A DNA stretch of 64,000 nucleotides from Promethearchaeota archaeon (GCA_048940445.1 JBHLON010000002.1:118149-182148), one strand, 5' to 3'. Numbered from the stretch's first letter, positions 30,419 to 40,350 are shown. Notes: generated by a model from the sequence alone, not told the origin. Made by a program: numbers and translations.

Positions 30419-32362
30419 ATGGAAAAATCTGATAATCAAAGAATTGGATACTATGCTTGTCAGTGAGGTATAAATATTCGTGGAAAAATTGATTGCAATA
30501 AGTTAGTGGAGTACGCTAAAGATTTAGATGGAGTTATCGTTGCTAAACAGCACAGTTTTCTTTGCACTGAGAGTGGTCAAAATGAAATTATTGGGGATAT
30601 AAAAGAAAAAAAATTAAATCGCATTGTAGTTTCTGCTTGAACTCCACGTACTCATGAACCAGTTTATAGAGGATCGATTGCAAAGACAGATTTAAATCCT
30701 TATTACTTTCAGATGGTAAATGTGCGTGAACATTGCTCTTGGTGTACAGAAAGTAATGAAGAGGCATTAGATAAAGCTAAAATCTTGGTAAAGAGTGGTA
30801 TCGAACGAGGAAAACTACTTGAAGTTGTACCCATTAGAACTGTGCCTGTAGAAAAAGCCACCCTGGTGGTGGGTGGAGGAATAGCAGGGATGAATGCGGC
30901 TCTGGATCTCGCCAATCAAGGAATTAAAGTGTATTTGGTTGATAAAAACACAACTATAGGAGGACGAATGGCGCAATTAGACAGAACATTTCCAACTGAT
31001 GACTGTGCGATATGAATCTGTGGACCTAAGATGCTTGAAGTAAATCGAAATGAAAATATTGAGATTCTTAGCTATTCAGAAGTGAAAAAAGTAGAAGGTT
31101 ATGTTGGTAATTATGAAATAACTGTTGAAAAGAAACCTCGTTATATAAATCCAGAAACTTGTAACGGATGTGGGGCTTGCGCAGAAGTATGTCCTACTTA
31201 TACCAATAATTACTTTGATGAATATCTAGGAGCAAGAAAAACAATTGATATTGCTTTTGGTCAAGCAGTCCCTTTTTTATATGATATTCATAGGGAGACT
31301 TGTGTAGAATGCTTTAATTGTGTCGATGCATGTGAGCTTGATGCAATAGATTTCAGCCAAATACCAGAAGAAGTCAAATTTAAAGTTGGAACTATTATCA
31401 TTGCTACTGGTTGGGATATATACGAGCCATTCGGAGAATATGGCTATGGAGAATATGCTAATGTGATCACACAATCTCAACTCGAAAGAATGCTAGCTCC
31501 AAATGGACCATTAGAAGGACACGTCCAGAGAATTTCTGATAATAAAAAACTAAAGGAGATAGTTTTCATTCAATGCGTCGGAAGTCGAGAAACCGAAAGA
31601 ACCTACTGTAGTGGTGTGTGTTGTATGCTTGCTTTAAAAAATGGAAAATTACTTAAAGAAGAATTTCCTGATGCTAATATTACTATCTGCTATATTGATA
31701 TAAGAACTAATGAGAAAGGTTTTGAAGAATATTACCAACGAGCTAAGGATTCTGATATTCGAATGATTCGTGGTAAAGTTGGTGAGATTACAGAAGATCC
31801 TGAGACTAAAAATGTTAAAATACGCGTTTATTCATCATTAACAGATGAAATAATTAATATTGATGCAGATTTAGTAGTTTTATCAACAGCAGCATTACCA
31901 TCTAAAGGGACTCAACAAATTGCCAAAGTTTTAAACTTAGATGTTGATAAGAATGGATTTCTGACCGAATCCCACTTTGGTTTGATGCCACAAGAAACAA
32001 AAACTAAAGGTATTTTTATAGCTGGATTTGCCCAAGGACCTAAAGACATTGCTTATTCAGTTTCACAAGCTAGAGCTGCTGCAAGTAAGGTTGCAGAACT
32101 GACTTCTACCGGTGAAATTGACTTAGAGTTAATTATAGCCGAGGTAGATAAAGATTCCTGTATTTCTTGTAGAAGATGCGAAAAAGAATGTCCAAAAGGT
32201 GCAATAAAGATCGTAGAAGATGAGGGTGCAATTGTTGATGAAATAAATTGTGATGGTTGCGGTATATGCGCTACTTGTTGCCCTACACGAGCAATTGATA
32301 TACGATATTATAGGGATCATCAGTTATATGCTGAAATTGAAGCTCTATTAGGAGGTGTTTAA
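30419..32362 (+). CDS. hdrA: Heterodisulfide reductase subunit A, selenoprotein with 3 Sec (codons 16, 74, 199); 647 aa
   Basis: One frame from ATG 30419. TGA at 30464 (YACQ-U-GINI vs LICHCGINI), 30638 (VSA-U-TPRTHE vs VASCTPRTHE) and 31013 (DCAI-U-ICGPKM vs DCSLCILAPKM in the in-window paralog); joins track ORFs 30713-31015 and 31031-32362. Confidence 0.95.
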
Positions 32363-32366
32363 ATAA

Positions 32367-32810
32367 ATGGACACAAATTTCAATATATTGATGTTTGCTT
32401 GTTTAAAATGAGGTTATGGTGCTGCAGATTTAGCAGGAGTGTCTCGATTAAAATATACACCGTCTGTTAAAATAGTAAAAATTAGGTGTACTGGACGGAT
32501 TGATGTGAAACATATCTTATATGCGATTAAGTCTGGAGCTGATGGTGTAATGATAGTTGGATGACGACCAGATGAATGTCAATTTAAGTACGGTAATTTT
32601 AAAGCACAAACTCATGTTGATTTGGCCAACAGAATATTAGAACGTAGAGGATTTGGAAACCAGAGAATAAATCAATATTGGTTAAGTAGCGCTGAATCAG
32701 AAAAATTAGTTAAAAGTGTTGAAGATGCAGTAGAAAAGGTACAACGTATGGGTAAAAACCCAATCCACGATATAAAATCTAAAAAAAAGAAAGCAAGCAT
32801 TGCCTCTTAG
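32367..32810 (+). CDS. mvhD: MvhD/VhuD [2Fe-2S] subunit, selenoprotein with 2 Sec (codons 15, 66); 147 aa
   Basis: ATG 32367 after GGAGG. TGA at 32409 (FACLK-U-GYGAADLAG vs FCCNWCSYAGADLAG) and 32562 (IVG-U-RPDEC vs ITGCHIGDC); RCTGRID. Confidence 0.95.
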
Positions 32811-32850
32811 AATGACTCTTATAAATAAATCTTCGTTATAAGATGACTAA
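32807..32850 (+). promoter_or_regulatory. Eukaryote-like (Loki-type) SECIS element
   Basis: UUAG/CUAA stem, AAU bulge, tandem G.A/A.G (AUGA..GA), perfect 8-bp UCUUAUAA/UUAUAAGA helix, apical loop containing AAA; begins at the mvhD stop. Confidence 0.85.
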
Positions 32851-32915
32851 CCATGTGTTGGTAAAGGAGGTATTAATAAAATTAAATTATTAAAAACTAA
32901 AATAATTGTAAAAGT

Positions 32916-34421
32916 ATGGTTCAGGTAGTGAATGAGAAATCATTCAGTGGAATTTCTCCAAAGAATTTAATGGAAGCAACTTATAAAGCATCTGAAAATT
33001 TCCAAATTAGAGCCTTTTATGAATCTAAAGAAGAAATCTTAAAGGCATCTAAATACTCAGAAAATGAATTTTATGAGATATACGATGCTATGCTAGATGC
33101 GGAGACGGAAAGAAAAATAGTATTAGAGGGGCTTAGAGGTAATAAACCTTTATTTTTAGAAGAAATAGTGAAAATTGTAACCGAATTTCCAGCAAATAAT
33201 GTTATTCGAGATATAATCTATTTAAAAGAGCAAGGATATATTGAGGAACAAATTGAAGTTAAAACTAAAGTAGTTATAAAAAAAATAAAAGGAGTAGAAA
33301 AAGAGGTAGAAGAAAAAGAATACTTTTATAGGTATCAAGTAAGAAAAGTACCTGATAAGTTCGTTGAAAATTATTTTGAACCTGTTTCAATAGTATTCGA
33401 ATCAGAAGTATGTTGTCAATGTGGTTGGTGTAGTAGCATTTGTCCCGTAAATGCAATAAACGTGACAGCAGATCTACTTGAAATTGATGAAGAAAAATGC
33501 ATGAAATGTGGTTTATGTTTTTCAGTCTGTCCTCGGACTTTTTCAATTGATCAAGTTTATAAAACAATCAAACAATTAGATAAAAATCTTAAGTGGTCAG
33601 CTAAAATCGGAGCTTATGTCAATGCCTATTCAGGAGCAACAACTAAAGAACAAATAAAAAAAGTAAAACAAGATGGAGGTGTCGTCACTTCACTATTAGA
33701 GTATCTGTTAGAGAACAATTTAGTAGATGCAATAATTGCTGTCAAACATTCTAAGGATTTATGGAGACCAGAACCAATAATAGTTGAAAAAGTTAGTGAT
33801 CTTTATAAAACGGGTGGTACTAAGTATGCTAATGCTGCTACATTATCAATTATTCAGATGGCTAAAAATTATGAAAGAATAGCAGTGGTGGGAGTTCCTT
33901 GTATGATGAAAGCAATTGAAAAAGGCACTCTTTTTCCAAGTGGATTGCCATTCTTTAAAAATATTAAATTTAGAATTGGATTATTTTGCATGGAATCCTT
34001 TCCCTATGATGGAGTAGTGCAACTAACGAAAGAAAAATTTGATAAGGATATTAACCAATTAACTAAAATGAATATTGATAGTGGGAAATTTATTATTAAT
34101 TTGAATTCTGGAGAAGAGTTAAAGGTAGATTTGAAAGAAGTCAAATCATATGCTCGCAATAATTGTCATTATTGTGAAGATTTAACCTCTGATTATGCTG
34201 ATATTTCGGTTGGCTCCATAGGTTCTCAAGGAGGTTGGTCTTCTGTAATTACACGTTCTAAGCAAGGAGATCAAATTTATCAAGGTGCAATAAGAGCTGG
34301 TTTAATAGAATCTCAAAGTTTAAAGGATGTTAAACCAGGCTTAGGTCTTTTGGAGCGAATTGCGGGAAGTAAAAGGAAAAATTGTAAGGTAATTGAACTT
34401 AAAAAGGAAAAAATATTATGA
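32916..34421 (+). CDS. FrhB/FdhB-family F420-binding subunit with N-terminal winged-helix-like domain
   Basis: CCQCGWC, CMKCGLC, QDGGVVT, GTKY, VGVPC, GLFCME, ADISVGS. Confidence 0.9.
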   Translation: MVQVVNEKSFSGISPKNLMEATYKASENFQIRAFYESKEEILKASKYSENEFYEIYDAMLDAETERKIVLEGLRGNKPLFLEEIVKIVTEFPANNVIRDIIYLKEQGYIEEQIEVKTKVVIKKIKGVEKEVEEKEYFYRYQVRKVPDKFVENYFEPVSIVFESEVCCQCGWCSSICPVNAINVTADLLEIDEEKCMKCGLCFSVCPRTFSIDQVYKTIKQLDKNLKWSAKIGAYVNAYSGATTKEQIKKVKQDGGVVTSLLEYLLENNLVDAIIAVKHSKDLWRPEPIIVEKVSDLYKTGGTKYANAATLSIIQMAKNYERIAVVGVPCMMKAIEKGTLFPSGLPFFKNIKFRIGLFCMESFPYDGVVQLTKEKFDKDINQLTKMNIDSGKFIINLNSGEELKVDLKEVKSYARNNCHYCEDLTSDYADISVGSIGSQGGWSSVITRSKQGDQIYQGAIRAGLIESQSLKDVKPGLGLLERIAGSKRKNCKVIELKKEKIL

Positions 34422-35530
34422 GTTCAAAAACATTCGAGGACTTGATTAAAGAAGTTCATGAAAAGGGTATCTGTCAAGAATGTGGAGGTTGTGTGTCATT
34501 CTGCTCATCAGCAGAATATAACGTCATAGGCTTATTGGATCCCTATAAACCTCCAAAATACATTAATAAAGATAAGTGCCTTGAATGTGGAATCTGTTAT
34601 TATATTTGTCCTCAAACACATATACTAGATAGTGATTTAAATAACATATACAATTTTTCAGATTTCTCTTCAACTCCTATTGGATACTATGAAGATATAT
34701 ATTCTTGTCAAGCTACAGATCCGGAGTTTTTAAAGTTTGGAACAGATGGAGGGGTTGTTAACTCAATTATAAATTTCTTGATTGAAAAAAAAATGATAAA
34801 TGGTGCCATAGTCTCGAAAACTGATGCTCCATTTTCCAGAGAGGCAACATTTGCAGATAGCAAATATGATTTATTAAAAGCTTCAGGTGCAAAATTAGAT
34901 GTAACCCCACAATTAAATGAAATACAAAAGTTTTGCACATATACTCACTCGATCCCTAAATTAAATCATTATAAATTTAAGAAATTAGCGATAGTTGGCA
35001 CTCCATGTCAAATTTATACCATAAGATGTATGCAAGATTTAGGAGTCACTCCTTCAGAAAACATTGAAATTTGTCTTGGTTTATTTTGCTATGAAAACTT
35101 TTTTTTTGAGAAATTTCAAATTGAGAAGTTTGAAAAAGATTTTAATATAAAATTTAATGATATTGTGAAGATAAATATTAAGGAAGATGTAATTTTTAAA
35201 ATAAAAAGTGAGGGCCCTTCAGAGAAAATCGTCCATATTCCTTTTAATCATTTGAATGACTATATGCGTCCAGCATGTAATGCCTGTAATGATTTTACTA
35301 ATATCTATGCGGATATATCATTTGGAGGATTAGGGTCTCCGGATAAATATACTACTGTAATAACACGAACAAAAAGAGGAAAAGAGATTTTTTCAAAAAT
35401 CATCGATGAAGGAATAATTTTAAGCAAAGAAATGGATCCTCCAAAAAAAAAGAAAATGTTAGATTTAATAATTGAATATTCAAAATCTAAAGTATTACGT
35501 AAAGAGAGATTTATGCAGAAATTAAATTAA
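34418..35530 (+). CDS. FrhB/FdhB-family F420-binding subunit
   Basis: CQECGGC, CLECGIC, DGGVV, VGTPCQ, GLFCYE, CNACND, ADISFG; ATGA overlap. Confidence 0.9.
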   Translation: MSSKTFEDLIKEVHEKGICQECGGCVSFCSSAEYNVIGLLDPYKPPKYINKDKCLECGICYYICPQTHILDSDLNNIYNFSDFSSTPIGYYEDIYSCQATDPEFLKFGTDGGVVNSIINFLIEKKMINGAIVSKTDAPFSREATFADSKYDLLKASGAKLDVTPQLNEIQKFCTYTHSIPKLNHYKFKKLAIVGTPCQIYTIRCMQDLGVTPSENIEICLGLFCYENFFFEKFQIEKFEKDFNIKFNDIVKINIKEDVIFKIKSEGPSEKIVHIPFNHLNDYMRPACNACNDFTNIYADISFGGLGSPDKYTTVITRTKRGKEIFSKIIDEGIILSKEMDPPKKKKMLDLIIEYSKSKVLRKERFMQKLN

Positions 35531-35578
35531 AGAGGGAGAGATATAACAGAATCAAAAAGAGACCTTGAAAGGAAAAAA

Positions 35579-36805
35579 ATGTTCGGTGATACATTAGACT
35601 ATTTGGATAAAGTTTATGAATCTAATCTAAGGAATTTATTAAAAAAATGCTATCAATGTGGACGTTGTAGTGGTGTTTGTCAATTAAGCAAAGTTCAAAA
35701 ATTTCCACCAAGTAGGATTATACAGTTAATCTTAGAAGGATTTGAAGATAAAGTATTGAATTCAGGTGTTTTATGGGATTGCCTTACGTGTAATCAATGT
35801 TTAAAAGATTGTCCAGAGAAAATCAACTTTGCAGATATTGTTAGAATAGCAAGGTATAAAATGAGGCATGAAACAAACCAAAAATCTGATGAATTTATTG
35901 CTCATAAGGGGATTTACACTACAATAGCAGAAATGATGAGTAGACCATACATAACTCCAGAGAGATCGCTAGAGTGGATACCAAAAGATTGTAGTGTGTT
36001 AGAAAAAGGAGAACTCCTATATTATGTAGGATGTTTACCTTTTTATGAATATGAATTTGAAGATTCAAATAATATAGCTAAGTGTACATTACAACTTCTA
36101 TGCCAAATCGAACAAAAACCAATAGTAGTTTTAAAAGAGGAGAGTTGTTGTGGTCACGATATTTACTGGGGACAGGGGAAATTAAAGACATTTATTAAAT
36201 TAGCAAAGAAAAATTTGGAAAAATTTGAGAAAGCGGGAGTTTCTAAGATAGTTACTGCTTGTGCAGAATGTTATCGTACTCTAAAAATTGATTATTCTAA
36301 TATTTTTGAGAATTTCTCAACTAGGTTTGAAGTACAGCACATTATTGAATATATTTATGATAAATGGAAAGAAAATGAAATAGCTTTTAAGGGACCAAAC
36401 AAAAAAGATAAAGATACAATATTTACCTATCATGATCCTTGTAGGTTGAGTAGATTTTTACCCGAAGAGGATAATTTAACAAAAAAAGTTAGAGAAATTT
36501 TCGATGAATTAACAAGATTAGGATTTAATTTTAAGGAAATGAAACATAATAAAGAAAATTCTCTCTGTTGTGGAGTTAATTCCTGGATGAACTGCAATGA
36601 AAAATCTAAAGCACTTAGATATAAACGTATGTTAGAAGCAAAATCAGCAGCTCCTTTAATGGTGACTTCATGTCCGAAATGTGAGATTCATTTTAAATGT
36701 CTTCAGAACGATTTCGAAGATATAGAAGATATTAAAATCTTGGATTTTTCAGAGTTTATTATAAATCATGTTGAAATGATTGACAACTTGAATAGCGAGG
36801 AATAA
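35579..36805 (+). CDS. HdrD-like (HdrC+HdrB) Fe-S oxidoreductase with CCG domains
   Basis: CYQCGRC, CLTCNQC..CP, YYVGC, CCG x2, TYHDPC, SCPKC. Confidence 0.88.
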   Translation: MFGDTLDYLDKVYESNLRNLLKKCYQCGRCSGVCQLSKVQKFPPSRIIQLILEGFEDKVLNSGVLWDCLTCNQCLKDCPEKINFADIVRIARYKMRHETNQKSDEFIAHKGIYTTIAEMMSRPYITPERSLEWIPKDCSVLEKGELLYYVGCLPFYEYEFEDSNNIAKCTLQLLCQIEQKPIVVLKEESCCGHDIYWGQGKLKTFIKLAKKNLEKFEKAGVSKIVTACAECYRTLKIDYSNIFENFSTRFEVQHIIEYIYDKWKENEIAFKGPNKKDKDTIFTYHDPCRLSRFLPEEDNLTKKVREIFDELTRLGFNFKEMKHNKENSLCCGVNSWMNCNEKSKALRYKRMLEAKSAAPLMVTSCPKCEIHFKCLQNDFEDIEDIKILDFSEFIINHVEMIDNLNSEE

Positions 36806-36809
36806 CAGA

Positions 36810-39800
36810 ATGGAAGGATCTGTCTTAGTAATAGGTGGGGGTATCGCAGGAATTCAAACCTCATTAGATTTAACGGAATTGGGATTTAAAGTTTACTTAG
36901 TGGAAAGAAATCCTTCAATCGGAGGTCGTATGGCTCAACTTGATAAAACTTTTCCTACAAATGATTGTAGTCTTTGTATCTTAGCACCAAAGATGGTAGA
37001 AGTCTTTAGAAATCCAAACATAGAACTTATGACATATCATGAAGTATTAAATGTATCTGGAACAGTCGGAGACTTTAAAGTTAAGATTCTGAAAAAGCCA
37101 AGATATATAGATGAAACCAAATGTAAGGGTTGTGGCGATTGTTCTCAGCGTTGTCCGAAGATTGAAGTCCCGAATTTATTCGATATGAAATTAGGTAAAA
37201 GGAAATCTATATACATCCCTTTTCCACAAGCTGTACCTCCTATATATTTAATTGATCCTGAAATCTGTCTTAAATTAACTAAAGGAGTTTGTGGTGTATG
37301 TGAGAAAGTATGTAAAGCTGAAGCAATCGATTATGAACAACAGCCTCGGGAATTTGAGATTAAAGTAGGAGCAATTGTAGTTGCTACGGGATTTGATATG
37401 CCAGCAGAACAAATAACCTCCCGGTGGGGGTATCAATATAAAAATGTTATTAGTGCTTTAGAATATGAAAGAATATTATGTGCTTCAGGTCCATTTGGTG
37501 GTCATATATTACGGCCAAGTGATGAAACTGAGCCTGAGAGGATTGCTTTCATACAATGTGCTGGTTCACGAGATTTACATGAAAATATTCCTTACTGTTC
37601 AAGCGTTTGTTGTATGTACACCGCAAAGGAAGCTATTATCACCAAAGAACATTCAGAAAAAGCTAAATGTTTTGTGTTTAGGCACGATATAAGAGCTTAT
37701 GGTAAGAATTTCTATGAATTCACCCAGAGGGCACAAGATGAATATGGTGTACAATATTTTCAGACCAAAGTTAGTAAAGTCGAAGAAGATCCTAGCAATA
37801 ATGATTTAATCATTCACTATGAAGATTTAAAAACGGGAAAATTTAATAATTTCAGGAGCAATTTAGTAGTATTAGCAACACCATTAGTTCCATCAAAGGG
37901 TACAATTGAAATGGGAAAAATTTTAGGTGTTAAACTAGATAAATATAACTTCTTTAAGGAAAGCTCATATTTTAATAAATCACTCTCATCTAAAGAGGGA
38001 ATATTTTTAAGCGGTTTTTGTCAGGGACCAATGGATATTCCAGAAACTGTGGCAGATGCAAGTGGAGTAGCATCTCAAATTGCTTCACTATTAAATTCTG
38101 TTAAATTTAAAGCCATAAGGGAAAAAGTTAGAGAGAAATCTGAGATCGAGGTTAAAATTTCTGATGAACCTCGAATTGGGGTTCTAATATGTCATTGTGG
38201 AATAAATATTGGTAAATATATTGATGTTTCCGGTGTTGTTGAATATGTGAAAACATTACCGTTTGTAGCTCACTGTGAGTCTAATCTATACTCTTGTTCA
38301 AGTGATTCTCAAGCAAGAATTAAAGAAATGATTGAAGAATATAACTTAAATAGGTTTATTGTTGCTTCCTGTACACCCCGAACTCATGAAGCTCTATTCC
38401 AAGAAACTTGTCAAGAAGCAGGTTTGAATAAATATTTATTCGAAATGGTAAACATTCGAGATCAATGTTCTTGGGTTCATATGAATGAATATGAATTTGC
38501 TACTGAAAAAGCTAAAGATTTAATTAGAATGGCCATTGCAAAAGCACGTTTATTAAAACCTCTTAACGAAGCGCGATTAGATATAACTCCAACAGCCTTA
38601 ATAATTGGTGCTGGAGTTTCTGGTATGACTGCGGCTTTAAATATTTCTAAACAGGGATTTAAAGTTTTTTTAGTAGAGAAAGAAAAGAAGTTAGGCGGAA
38701 TTTTAAATAACTTAAATATTTTATATCCTGTTCATGAGGATGCATCAACGTTTTTAGATGCTATAAGTAGGGATGTAAAGAGCAGCAAAAATATTGAACT
38801 ATTTTTAGACTCCCAAATTAAAAGTATCAAAGGTTATATTGGTAATTATGATGTTTCAATCATCGATTCAAAACAGAAAGTCCATGAATTAAAGATTGGA
38901 ACGATTATCGTGGCAACTGGTGCCCAAGAATTAAAACCAAATGGGATTTTTCAATATAGCGAGAAAAATGAAAACGTAATAACTCAACTTGAATTAGAAG
39001 AAAAGTTGAAAAGTAAAGATTCATCATGGTTAGATGAAATTGAAAGAGTAACAGTTATTTTATGTGTAAACGCAAGACAAAAAGAAGGAATCACTTATTG
39101 TTCTAACATTTGTTGTGGGGTAAGTATTAAAAATCTAAGTCTATTAAAAGAATTAAAACCTGAGATTGAGATTGTTGTTCTTTATAGAGATCTACAAATG
39201 GCTAAAAAAGAATTTGAAGAATATTATCGTGAGCGTAGGAAGAACGCGATATTTCTTAGATATAGTTTAGAACGGTTGCCAAAAATCGATAAAATAAGTA
39301 ATAAACCAGAAAAATACAAAATAAGTTTATTTGATACTAATTTGCAAGAGGATCTTAGTTTTGATACAGATTTAGTCATACTAGCAACTCCTATGATTCC
39401 CAATAACAACCTAACAGAATTGGCGAAAATGCTCAAGGTGCCTTTAGATAAAAATGGATTTTTTTTAGAAGCACATGTAAAACTTCGACCTTTAGATTTT
39501 GCTACTGACGGAATATTTTTAAGTGGCTGTGCTCAATGGCCGAAAAATGTGCAAGATTCAATTGCTCAAGCAAATGGTGCTGCAGGAAGGGCTAGTAGAT
39601 TTTTAAGTGCAAAAACAATAACAACTTCTGGTTTAATAGCTGAAGTAAACCCAGACAGATGCATAGGATGTGGAAAATGTGAATCTGTTTGTCCATATAA
39701 CGCGATTGAGATTAAAGAAGCACTTATGGAGTTTGAGGAAGTCAGCATAAAAGTAGCAAAATCGTTTATAAATTCAGCTTTATGTAAAGGATGTGGTACA

Positions 39801-39893
39801 TGTGCGGCTACTTGCCCTAATGGTGCTATCTCAGTTAAACATTATGATTTTGATCAAATTTATGCAATGATCGAATCTTATCTACTAGAATAA
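36810..39893 (+). CDS. hdrA: Large two-module HdrA-like flavoprotein (all-Cys)
   Basis: GGGIAG, DKTFPTNDCSLC, CHCGINI, ASCTPRTHE, second FAD module, C-terminal ferredoxin. Confidence 0.93.
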   Translation: MEGSVLVIGGGIAGIQTSLDLTELGFKVYLVERNPSIGGRMAQLDKTFPTNDCSLCILAPKMVEVFRNPNIELMTYHEVLNVSGTVGDFKVKILKKPRYIDETKCKGCGDCSQRCPKIEVPNLFDMKLGKRKSIYIPFPQAVPPIYLIDPEICLKLTKGVCGVCEKVCKAEAIDYEQQPREFEIKVGAIVVATGFDMPAEQITSRWGYQYKNVISALEYERILCASGPFGGHILRPSDETEPERIAFIQCAGSRDLHENIPYCSSVCCMYTAKEAIITKEHSEKAKCFVFRHDIRAYGKNFYEFTQRAQDEYGVQYFQTKVSKVEEDPSNNDLIIHYEDLKTGKFNNFRSNLVVLATPLVPSKGTIEMGKILGVKLDKYNFFKESSYFNKSLSSKEGIFLSGFCQGPMDIPETVADASGVASQIASLLNSVKFKAIREKVREKSEIEVKISDEPRIGVLICHCGINIGKYIDVSGVVEYVKTLPFVAHCESNLYSCSSDSQARIKEMIEEYNLNRFIVASCTPRTHEALFQETCQEAGLNKYLFEMVNIRDQCSWVHMNEYEFATEKAKDLIRMAIAKARLLKPLNEARLDITPTALIIGAGVSGMTAALNISKQGFKVFLVEKEKKLGGILNNLNILYPVHEDASTFLDAISRDVKSSKNIELFLDSQIKSIKGYIGNYDVSIIDSKQKVHELKIGTIIVATGAQELKPNGIFQYSEKNENVITQLELEEKLKSKDSSWLDEIERVTVILCVNARQKEGITYCSNICCGVSIKNLSLLKELKPEIEIVVLYRDLQMAKKEFEEYYRERRKNAIFLRYSLERLPKIDKISNKPEKYKISLFDTNLQEDLSFDTDLVILATPMIPNNNLTELAKMLKVPLDKNGFFLEAHVKLRPLDFATDGIFLSGCAQWPKNVQDSIAQANGAAGRASRFLSAKTITTSGLIAEVNPDRCIGCGKCESVCPYNAIEIKEALMEFEEVSIKVAKSFINSALCKGCGTCAATCPNGAISVKHYDFDQIYAMIESYLLE

Positions 39894-39906
39894 AAGGAGA
39901 GCTTAT

Positions 39907-40350
39907 ATGCCAAGAACTACAACAAAAGTAAAACCTAAAGTTAAACAATTTAACCCTGAAATCTTGGTATTTTGTTGTAATTGGTGCAGTTATGCAGGAG
40001 CAGATTTAGCTGGAGTCTCAAGGTTCCAATACCCTCCCAATATGAGGATTGTAAGGGTTATGTGTTCTGGAAGAGTGGATCCTGCATTTGTCATAAAAGC
40101 TTTAAAAGAAGGTGCTGATGGTGTCTTAATAACAGGATGTCATATTGGAGATTGTCATTATATTTCAGGAAATGAGTATGCAAGAGAAAGATTCGGTAGG
40201 TTACATGAGGTTATTATAAAACAATTAGGGATAAATGAGAAAAGAGTTCGGTTGGAATGGGTCAGTGCTTCCGAAGGCAAAAGATTTGCTGAATTAATCA
40301 CAGAATTTACAAACGAGATTAAAGAGTTAGGACCTCTTAAAGTCTTATAA
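39907..40350 (+). CDS. mvhD: MvhD [2Fe-2S] subunit (Cys-type)
   Basis: FCCNWCSYAGADLAG, VMCSGRVD, GCHIGDCHY, WVSASEG. Confidence 0.95.
   Translation: MPRTTTKVKPKVKQFNPEILVFCCNWCSYAGADLAGVSRFQYPPNMRIVRVMCSGRVDPAFVIKALKEGADGVLITGCHIGDCHYISGNEYARERFGRLHEVIIKQLGINEKRVRLEWVSASEGKRFAELITEFTNEIKELGPLKVL

Follow-up and report, generated by a model that had tools for sequence, protein, structure and literature searches.

The locus examined here raises the question of whether two adjacent genes, each interrupted by in-frame TGA codons, are broken or are translated through those codons as selenoproteins, and in the latter case what directs the recoding. The genes, hdrA and vhuD (also called mvhD), lie within a 64,000-nucleotide (nt) stretch of DNA from Promethearchaeota archaeon (GCA_048940445.1, JBHLON010000002.1:118149-182148), which is referred to below as the window. 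Our answer, to which we give a probability of roughly 0.93, is that hdrA and vhuD form a bicistronic selenoprotein unit in which five UGAs are recoded to selenocysteine (Sec, U) via one shared Sec insertion sequence (SECIS) located 3' of the second gene.

When TGA was read as Sec, hdrA formed a single frame of 647 amino acids closed by TAA, with U at residues 16, 74, and 199, and vhuD formed a frame of 147 amino acids with U at residues 15 and 66 (Table 1). The vhuD frame starts at the ATG at 32367, not 32368, and is closed by TAG at 32808-32810. No further internal stops and no frameshifts were present in either frame, and the read-through translation thus confirmed the five in-frame TGAs reported, with their positions, in a preliminary description of this DNA made from the sequence alone. 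Pairwise alignments placed all five TGAs on Cys positions of the paralogs in the window, again as that description had it. The true stop of hdrA is UAA and not UGA, and only a 4-nt spacer separates this codon (32360-32362) from the vhuD start. Because translation table 11 breaks hdrA into open reading frames (ORFs) of 44, 100, and 443 amino acids and vhuD into ORFs of 41 and 62, standard gene callers would fragment both genes, which had likewise been foreseen.

Both read-through products match the HdrA and MvhD families and their solved structures. HdrA aligned over its full length to five solved HdrAs, the best being that of M. maripaludis (PDB 9sfi_A, E = 2.6e-203, residues 7-645), and its best-scoring NCBIfam profile was HdrA2, an HdrA-MvhD fusion (775 bits, profile positions 1-640), with NCBIfam scores that lie below the curated cut-offs. 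Pfam domains for ferredoxin (Fer4) and flavin adenine dinucleotide (FAD)/pyridine-nucleotide-disulfide oxidoreductase (Pyr_redox) were identified, and the layout is that expected of HdrA: an N-terminal four-Cys domain, an FAD/TrxR-like portion with the CxxC/U motif, and inserted and C-terminal ferredoxin domains for two [4Fe-4S] clusters. VhuD matched Pfam FlpD (E = 1.4e-42), NCBIfam VhuD (156 bits, its top NCBIfam match), and the solved VhuD 9sfi_K (E = 4e-35). The Sec residues of the M. maripaludis proteins, written as X in 9sfi_A and 9sfi_K, align to HdrA U199 and to VhuD U15 and U66. The pair also tiles the HdrA2 fusion profile, with hdrA covering positions 1-640 and vhuD positions 648-774, and for this reason we regard it as a split form of the Methanosarcina-type HdrA2 fusion.

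The read-through HdrA was searched against 40 related genomes. Orthologs with HdrA at 80 to 95% amino acid identity were recovered from 23 genomes of the same genus, namely this genome and 22 others. A SECIS of the lokiSECIS type was located 3' of vhuD in all orthologs. In the window, it begins one base past the vhuD stop and consists of AUGA (32812-32815), a stem of nine positions (32816-32824 with 32836-32844) of which eight form Watson-Crick pairs, with C.U at the base, an A-rich apical loop of 11 nt (32825-32835, AUAAAUCUUCG) that begins AUAAA and ends in G, and GA (32845-32846) directly after the stem. A possible lower stem (32807-32810 with 32847-32850) would take in the UAG stop. The five UGAs are located 250, 403, 1799, 2174, and 2348 nt 5' of the AUGA. 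In an alignment of 24 sequences, 92.9% of the cells were paired, versus 39 to 51% when the partner strand was slid; compensatory changes were observed in 5 of the 9 stem pairs, and none of 500 shuffles attained the covariation score. The covariance model derived from this alignment found one site only in the contig, and in an unfiltered scan of 27-42 kb the next plus-strand match after the element itself (64.3 bits) scored 9.8 bits. No Rfam family matched the SECIS region at E <= 10.

Elsewhere in the same genome, we observed four further lokiSECIS matches (contig C100, C80:6120-6166, C47:25025-25071, and C28:302-348). That on C100 lies behind a second hdrA-vhuD pair with two Sec in each gene, and the remaining three follow genes without assigned identity. 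Further Sec-type hdrA paralogs with two TGAs each were present at C100:48815-51276 and C84:12213-14132.

A single element acting on UGAs as far as 2348 nt away, and in a different cistron, is unusual, and this distance gives some weight to a reading in which both products are true selenoproteins and each UGA, or at least each of those in hdrA, is served by a local element. The surroundings of the UGAs offer little to such a reading. No stable hairpin was found in the 65 nt after any of the five (z from -0.75 to +0.91), none of them is followed by a bacterial-type SECIS, that is, a stem-loop about 10 to 40 nt 3' of the UGA, and no second SECIS-like element was present in the 27-42 kb scanned. 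Further, hdrA has no 3' untranslated region, since its spacer to vhuD is so short, and Mariotti et al. 2016 (PMC4989117) also concluded that the SECIS is shared. We therefore hold local elements to be improbable, and a SECIS common to both cistrons is the reading followed below.

The host is an Asgard archaeon of the Loki group, with a genome assembly of 3.64 Mb in 139 contigs (estimated to be about 93% complete) and a G+C content of about 30%. The nearest named records carrying vhuD are metagenome-assembled genomes labeled Promethearchaeota and "Hermodarchaeota". A search of this genome for Sec machinery, which the preliminary description had put forward as a check, recovered SepSecS (482 bits, cut-off 225), SelD with an in-frame UGA of its own (298 bits, cut-off 291), PSTK (146 bits, a full-length best match), and a GTPase resembling EFSec (233 bits with the selB model, 133 with that of EF-Tu), and also a candidate tRNA-Sec beside SepSecS. 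The latter is a 157-nt locus directly 5' of the SepSecS gene on contig C61 (L025:1467-1623, minus strand). Its acceptor stem has 9 bp, its anticodon loop carries UCA, its discriminator is G, and the CCA end is encoded; EFSec is located about 4.5 kb away on the opposite strand. After splicing in silico, the fold of the tRNA is of the 9/4 type: the D stem has 7 bp and the D loop 4 nt, the variable arm is long, and the T stem has 4 bp. The gene appears to be interrupted by two introns, one located in the D arm and one in the T loop. At default thresholds the Rfam tRNA-Sec model had no match in the whole genome, nor did ARAGORN, run with or without anticodon-loop introns across the whole genome, call a tRNA-Sec. 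ARAGORN reported only 10 to 13 tRNA genes in the 3.6 Mb, and most tRNAs are either unassembled or interrupted by noncanonical introns.

Another way to read through the TGAs would be a genome-wide reassignment of the codon, or its decoding by a near-cognate Cys or Trp tRNA. Read-through of UGA as Cys or Trp does occur in some organisms under selenium limitation. In the present genome, however, TGA terminates 279 of the 1897 ORFs of at least 250 amino acids, and in the window 2 of the 45 ORFs of at least 200 amino acids, so the genetic code has not been reassigned. In-frame TGAs are confined to Cys positions, and to genes that have a SECIS behind them, and the Sec pathway appears to be complete. 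On these grounds, altered or near-cognate decoding is even less probable than local elements, and incorporation of Sec remains the preferred explanation.

Several observations weigh against that explanation. The SECIS covariance model that gave 64.3 bits was built from an alignment that contains the window element. The hairpin by itself is thermodynamically weak (-4 kcal/mol, z = -0.78), and folding of the single sequence did not tell it apart from shuffles, which leaves covariation as the support for the structure. We know of no SECIS-binding factor in Asgard archaea, and of no SBP2 there. Among the machinery genes, PSTK scored under its cut-off of 290 bits and EFSec just under its cut-off of 242, in both cases against NCBIfam cut-offs built on euryarchaeal and bacterial sequences. 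Lastly, the unspliced tRNA-Sec locus reached 23.6 bits in a relaxed search with the Rfam model, under the 47-bit cut-off, and before ARAGORN would call a tRNA-SeC, a D-arm insert of about 34 nt and a T-loop insert of about 30 nt had to be cut out in silico.

The distribution of TGAs among relatives goes far beyond what chance would give. Orthologs of hdrA contained three to five in-frame TGAs each, and codons 16, 74, and 199 were TGA in 23 of 23 at each site. Codon 49 was TGA in 18 and TGY in 5, the present copy being among the latter, and codon 301 was TGA in a single ortholog. Both VhuD positions, 15 and 66, were TGA in all 22 vhuD orthologs recovered. In larger sets, position 199 of HdrA was TGA in 30 of 30 Asgard homologs examined, and position 15 of VhuD was U in 28 of 28 homologs aligned. 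These sites are preserved against a background of considerable nucleotide divergence: third-codon-position identity to the window hdrA was about 0.45 to 0.5 in three of the four orthologs measured (0.70 in the closest), and the Cys codons adjacent to Sec sites, 14 and 196, alternate between TGT and TGC among orthologs. Since third positions are near-randomized and neighboring Cys codons vary in this way, the TGAs have been selected as TGA. The usual state in the genus is four Sec (16, 49, 74, and 199), of which the three-Sec copy in the window is a reduced form, its position 49 having either reverted from Sec or never been converted to it. At the other extreme, one ortholog (L044, genome G011, contig C5) has five TGAs, including that at position 301, which falls in the inserted ferredoxin domain, within a CxxCxxCxxxC motif; together with the two TGAs of vhuD, this places seven UGAs 5' of one SECIS, where the published maximum is six.

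The same conservation bears on the view that hdrA and vhuD are pseudogenes inactivated by nonsense mutations, a view to which the short ORFs obtained under table 11 would lend themselves. All five stops are TGA and all lie on conserved Cys codons, they are kept throughout the orthologs, and the 80 to 95% identity of HdrA holds over the full length, including 3' of each TGA. We looked for orthologs with stops at random, non-Cys positions, and this pattern was not found. Inactivation is effectively refuted, and the proposal that both genes are intact and recoded stands, with TGAs on Cys sites, Sec machinery in the genome, and orthologs that retain the TGAs. Sequencing or assembly errors, conceivable in a metagenome-assembled genome of 139 contigs that is about 93% complete, can be dismissed as the least probable explanation of all, given that 22 congeneric genomes, each assembled independently, have identical TGAs.

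Table 1. Features of the hdrA-vhuD locus and its surroundings, in window coordinates.
Feature	Coordinates	Strand	Evidence
hdrA, three-Sec	30419..32362	+	Translation; PDB and NCBIfam matches
UGA, HdrA Sec16 (C-x-U, N-terminal domain)	30464..30466	+	TGA in orthologs; invariant Cys column
UGA, HdrA Sec74 (A-U-T-P-R motif, N-terminal domain)	30638..30640	+	TGA in orthologs; invariant Cys column
UGA, HdrA Sec199 (canonical C-x-x-U near FAD)	31013..31015	+	Aligned to Sec (X) of 9sfi_A
Shine-Dalgarno-like AGGAGGTG, within the hdrA 3' end, 9 nt 5' of the vhuD ATG	32350..32357	+	Sequence reading
vhuD/mvhD, two-Sec	32367..32810	+	Translation; Pfam, NCBIfam, and PDB matches
UGA, VhuD Sec15	32409..32411	+	Aligned to X of 9sfi_K and to Cys16 of M. 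marburgensis MvhD
UGA, VhuD Sec66	32562..32564	+	Aligned to second X of 9sfi_K
lokiSECIS	32806..32852	+	Conservation; covariation; covariance model match, 64.3 bits
Rest of cluster: two FrhB-like, CCG-domain HdrD/HdrBC-like, 1027-amino-acid HdrA-like, all-Cys mvhD	32916..40350	+	Pfam; pairwise alignments

In the mechanism that we propose, hdrA and vhuD, being 4 nt apart, would presumably be cotranscribed, and the kink-turn SECIS hairpin 3' of vhuD would direct EFSec with Sec-tRNA(Sec) to all five UGAs, while UAA and UAG would act as the true stops. The predicted products are an HdrA with three Sec and a VhuD with two. The analysis shows how the genes are laid out, that their UGAs are conserved, that the SECIS covaries, and that machinery genes are present, whereas cotranscription, the insertion of Sec itself, the part played by each Sec, and the partners in the complex are inferred from these.

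This arrangement is already known. According to Mariotti et al. 2016 (PMC4989117), HdrA of Loki archaea carries up to four Sec at five conserved-Cys positions, never without the canonical one, and its gene lies in tandem with a two-Sec vhuD with minimal spacer, the hdrA stops always being UAA or UAG. The same text places the lokiSECIS only 3' of vhuD, describes it as AUGA, a 9-bp stem, an 11-nt loop that opens with adenines and closes with G, and GA after the stem, and has one such element serve as many as six UGAs across about 2 kb. The survey of this system was later widened to 227 genomes of Asgard archaea (Huang et al. 2024, PMC11227280). In Lokiarchaeum, the EFSec and tRNA-Sec genes are a few kb apart and on opposite strands, and a 31-nt intron interrupts the T loop of the tRNA-Sec. 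The window unit shares the tandem order, the minimal spacer, a UAA stop of hdrA, a canonical Sec near residue 200 with extra Sec at conserved Cys, a VhuD of about 150 residues whose two Sec are spaced by about 50 codons, one SECIS located only 3' of vhuD, the relative arrangement of EFSec and the candidate tRNA-Sec, and an apparent T-loop intron in the latter. It differs in that its SECIS loop begins AUAAA rather than AAAAA and has C rather than A before the final G, and in that an additional D-arm intron seems to be required in its tRNA-Sec, where only the T-loop intron has been reported for Lokiarchaeum. Since all defining features match Mariotti et al. 2016 and Huang et al. 2024, the unit is a member of the published Loki system from which nothing essential sets it apart. 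HdrA positions 16 and 74 are probably among the five published positions, and the suggestion in the preliminary description that the two N-terminal Sec of HdrA might be novel did not survive this comparison, as multi-Sec Loki HdrAs appear in the 2016 report (PMC4989117).

More distant systems share parts of the arrangement. HdrA (one Sec) and VhuD (two Sec) of Methanococcales and Methanopyrus, as in the M. maripaludis Hdr-Vhu-Fwd complex (9sfi, PMC13518236), are orthologous to the window proteins, and the methanococcal HdrA Sec at about 197 to 199 and both VhuD Sec align exactly with those in the window. Unlike in the window protein, positions 16 and 74 of the methanococcal HdrA are Cys. The methanococcal SECIS is of the GC-rich archaeal type, with one per gene instead of one shared element, and the hosts are methanogens with an attached [NiFeSe] hydrogenase, whereas the window contains FrhB-like genes and no hydrogenase genes. 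Type I SECIS elements of eukaryotes have in common with the window element an AUGA...GA kink-turn core and unpaired adenines where the apical loop begins, and are likewise located 3' and act on distant and multiple UGAs. The window element has a much shorter upper stem and serves two cistrons, and no Rfam SECIS model matched it at E <= 10.

What the individual Sec residues do can be approached through the HdrA structures that have appeared since. In the 2016 account (PMC4989117), HdrA was credited with four clusters, none of them ligated by the extra Sec, which were assumed to be spare redox residues. More recently, one [4Fe-4S] cluster, A3/HA3, has been assigned to a mobile domain at HdrA's N terminus (PMC13518236). 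One figure legend puts HA3 at the C terminus of HdrA (PMC12350162), and we adopted the N-terminal placement since two classical ferredoxin motifs are present in the C-terminal domain. The identities of the cluster ligands are not stated in the open literature compared. In the N-terminal domain, exactly four Cys columns, 14, 16, 49, and 74, were invariant across Asgard paralogs and the five solved HdrAs; Cys26 is replaced in M. marburgensis, M. hungatei, and several Asgard paralogs. Because the domain binds one [4Fe-4S] cluster and has four invariant Cys, Sec16 and Sec74 (and Sec49 in congeners) are probably ligands of this shuttle cluster. As judged from sequence comparison, we lean slightly toward a reading in which these Sec take two to three of its four ligand sites and VhuD Sec66 ligates the [2Fe-2S] cluster.

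HdrA U199 matches the second Cys of the M. marburgensis pair Cys202/Cys205, and would be the C-x-x-U partner beside the bifurcating FAD; in M. maripaludis, the equivalent pair is found as a selenylsulfide or with an unknown ligand bound, between the cluster and the FAD. VhuD U15 corresponds to Cys16 of MvhD, a conserved non-ligand Cys on the same path, and would take over its place as a relay. As U15 matches this non-ligand residue, U66 is the likely [2Fe-2S] ligand of the two. The five Sec thus gather at the junction of the mobile-arm clusters and the flavin. We also considered whether HdrA's N-terminal domain is homologous to VhuD, with Sec16 corresponding to Sec15 and Sec74 to Sec66, and set this aside as unsupported by sequence (BLASTP E = 1, hhalign probability 0.5%).

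Downstream of the SECIS, the cluster continues with two FrhB/FdhB-family genes and then a CCG-domain HdrD-like gene (32916-36805), which lie between the Sec pair and a second, all-Cys HdrA-MvhD pair. The first FrhB-like gene encodes about 150 extra N-terminal residues and a ferredoxin domain. The all-Cys pair consists of an HdrA-like protein of 1027 amino acids (36810-39893) and an MvhD (39907-40350). The former is ordered as an FAD module, an internal copy of the otherwise N-terminal four-Cys domain, and a second FAD module with ferredoxin, and because of this different architecture the pair cannot be regarded simply as the Sec pair in a Cys version. A Pfam scan of the window detected no catalytic subunit of hydrogenase or formate dehydrogenase. 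The cluster resembles the hydrogenase-free Elp-Hdr type of bifurcating complex of Methanothermobacter marburgensis (PMC12350162), in which an FrhB/FdhB-like ElpB and an MvhD-like ElpC join HdrABC. Both combine FrhB-family and MvhD-family proteins with HdrA without a hydrogenase. Elp-Hdr has no Sec, and its subunit set differs from that of the window, with its two FrhB-like proteins, HdrD-like CCG protein, and rearranged second HdrA. Together with the FrhB-like and HdrBC-like proteins, the Sec-containing HdrA and VhuD would most likely form a hydrogenase-independent, flavin-based electron-bifurcating complex.

Because the phenomenon has already been published, the scientific value of the locus is modest; the small addition beyond published work is the reading of the N-terminal Sec as occupying ligand positions, along with a correct annotation of genes that, like their paralogs, will be mis-called as fragments here and in some 20-odd congeners. 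The locus is a well-preserved example of Asgard Sec use that links archaeal and eukaryotic Sec decoding, with one eukaryote-like 3' SECIS that would recode five UGAs in two cistrons over 2.3 kb. The extra Sec on the presumed ligands of the shuttle cluster, seen in light of the Hdr structures available since 2017, sharpen the question of the role of selenium in electron bifurcation. The low-potential electron leaves the bifurcating FAD by way of this cluster. If the ligand reading is true, Asgard HdrA would possess an Fe-S cluster with natural selenolate ligands, tuned at the very center of electron bifurcation.

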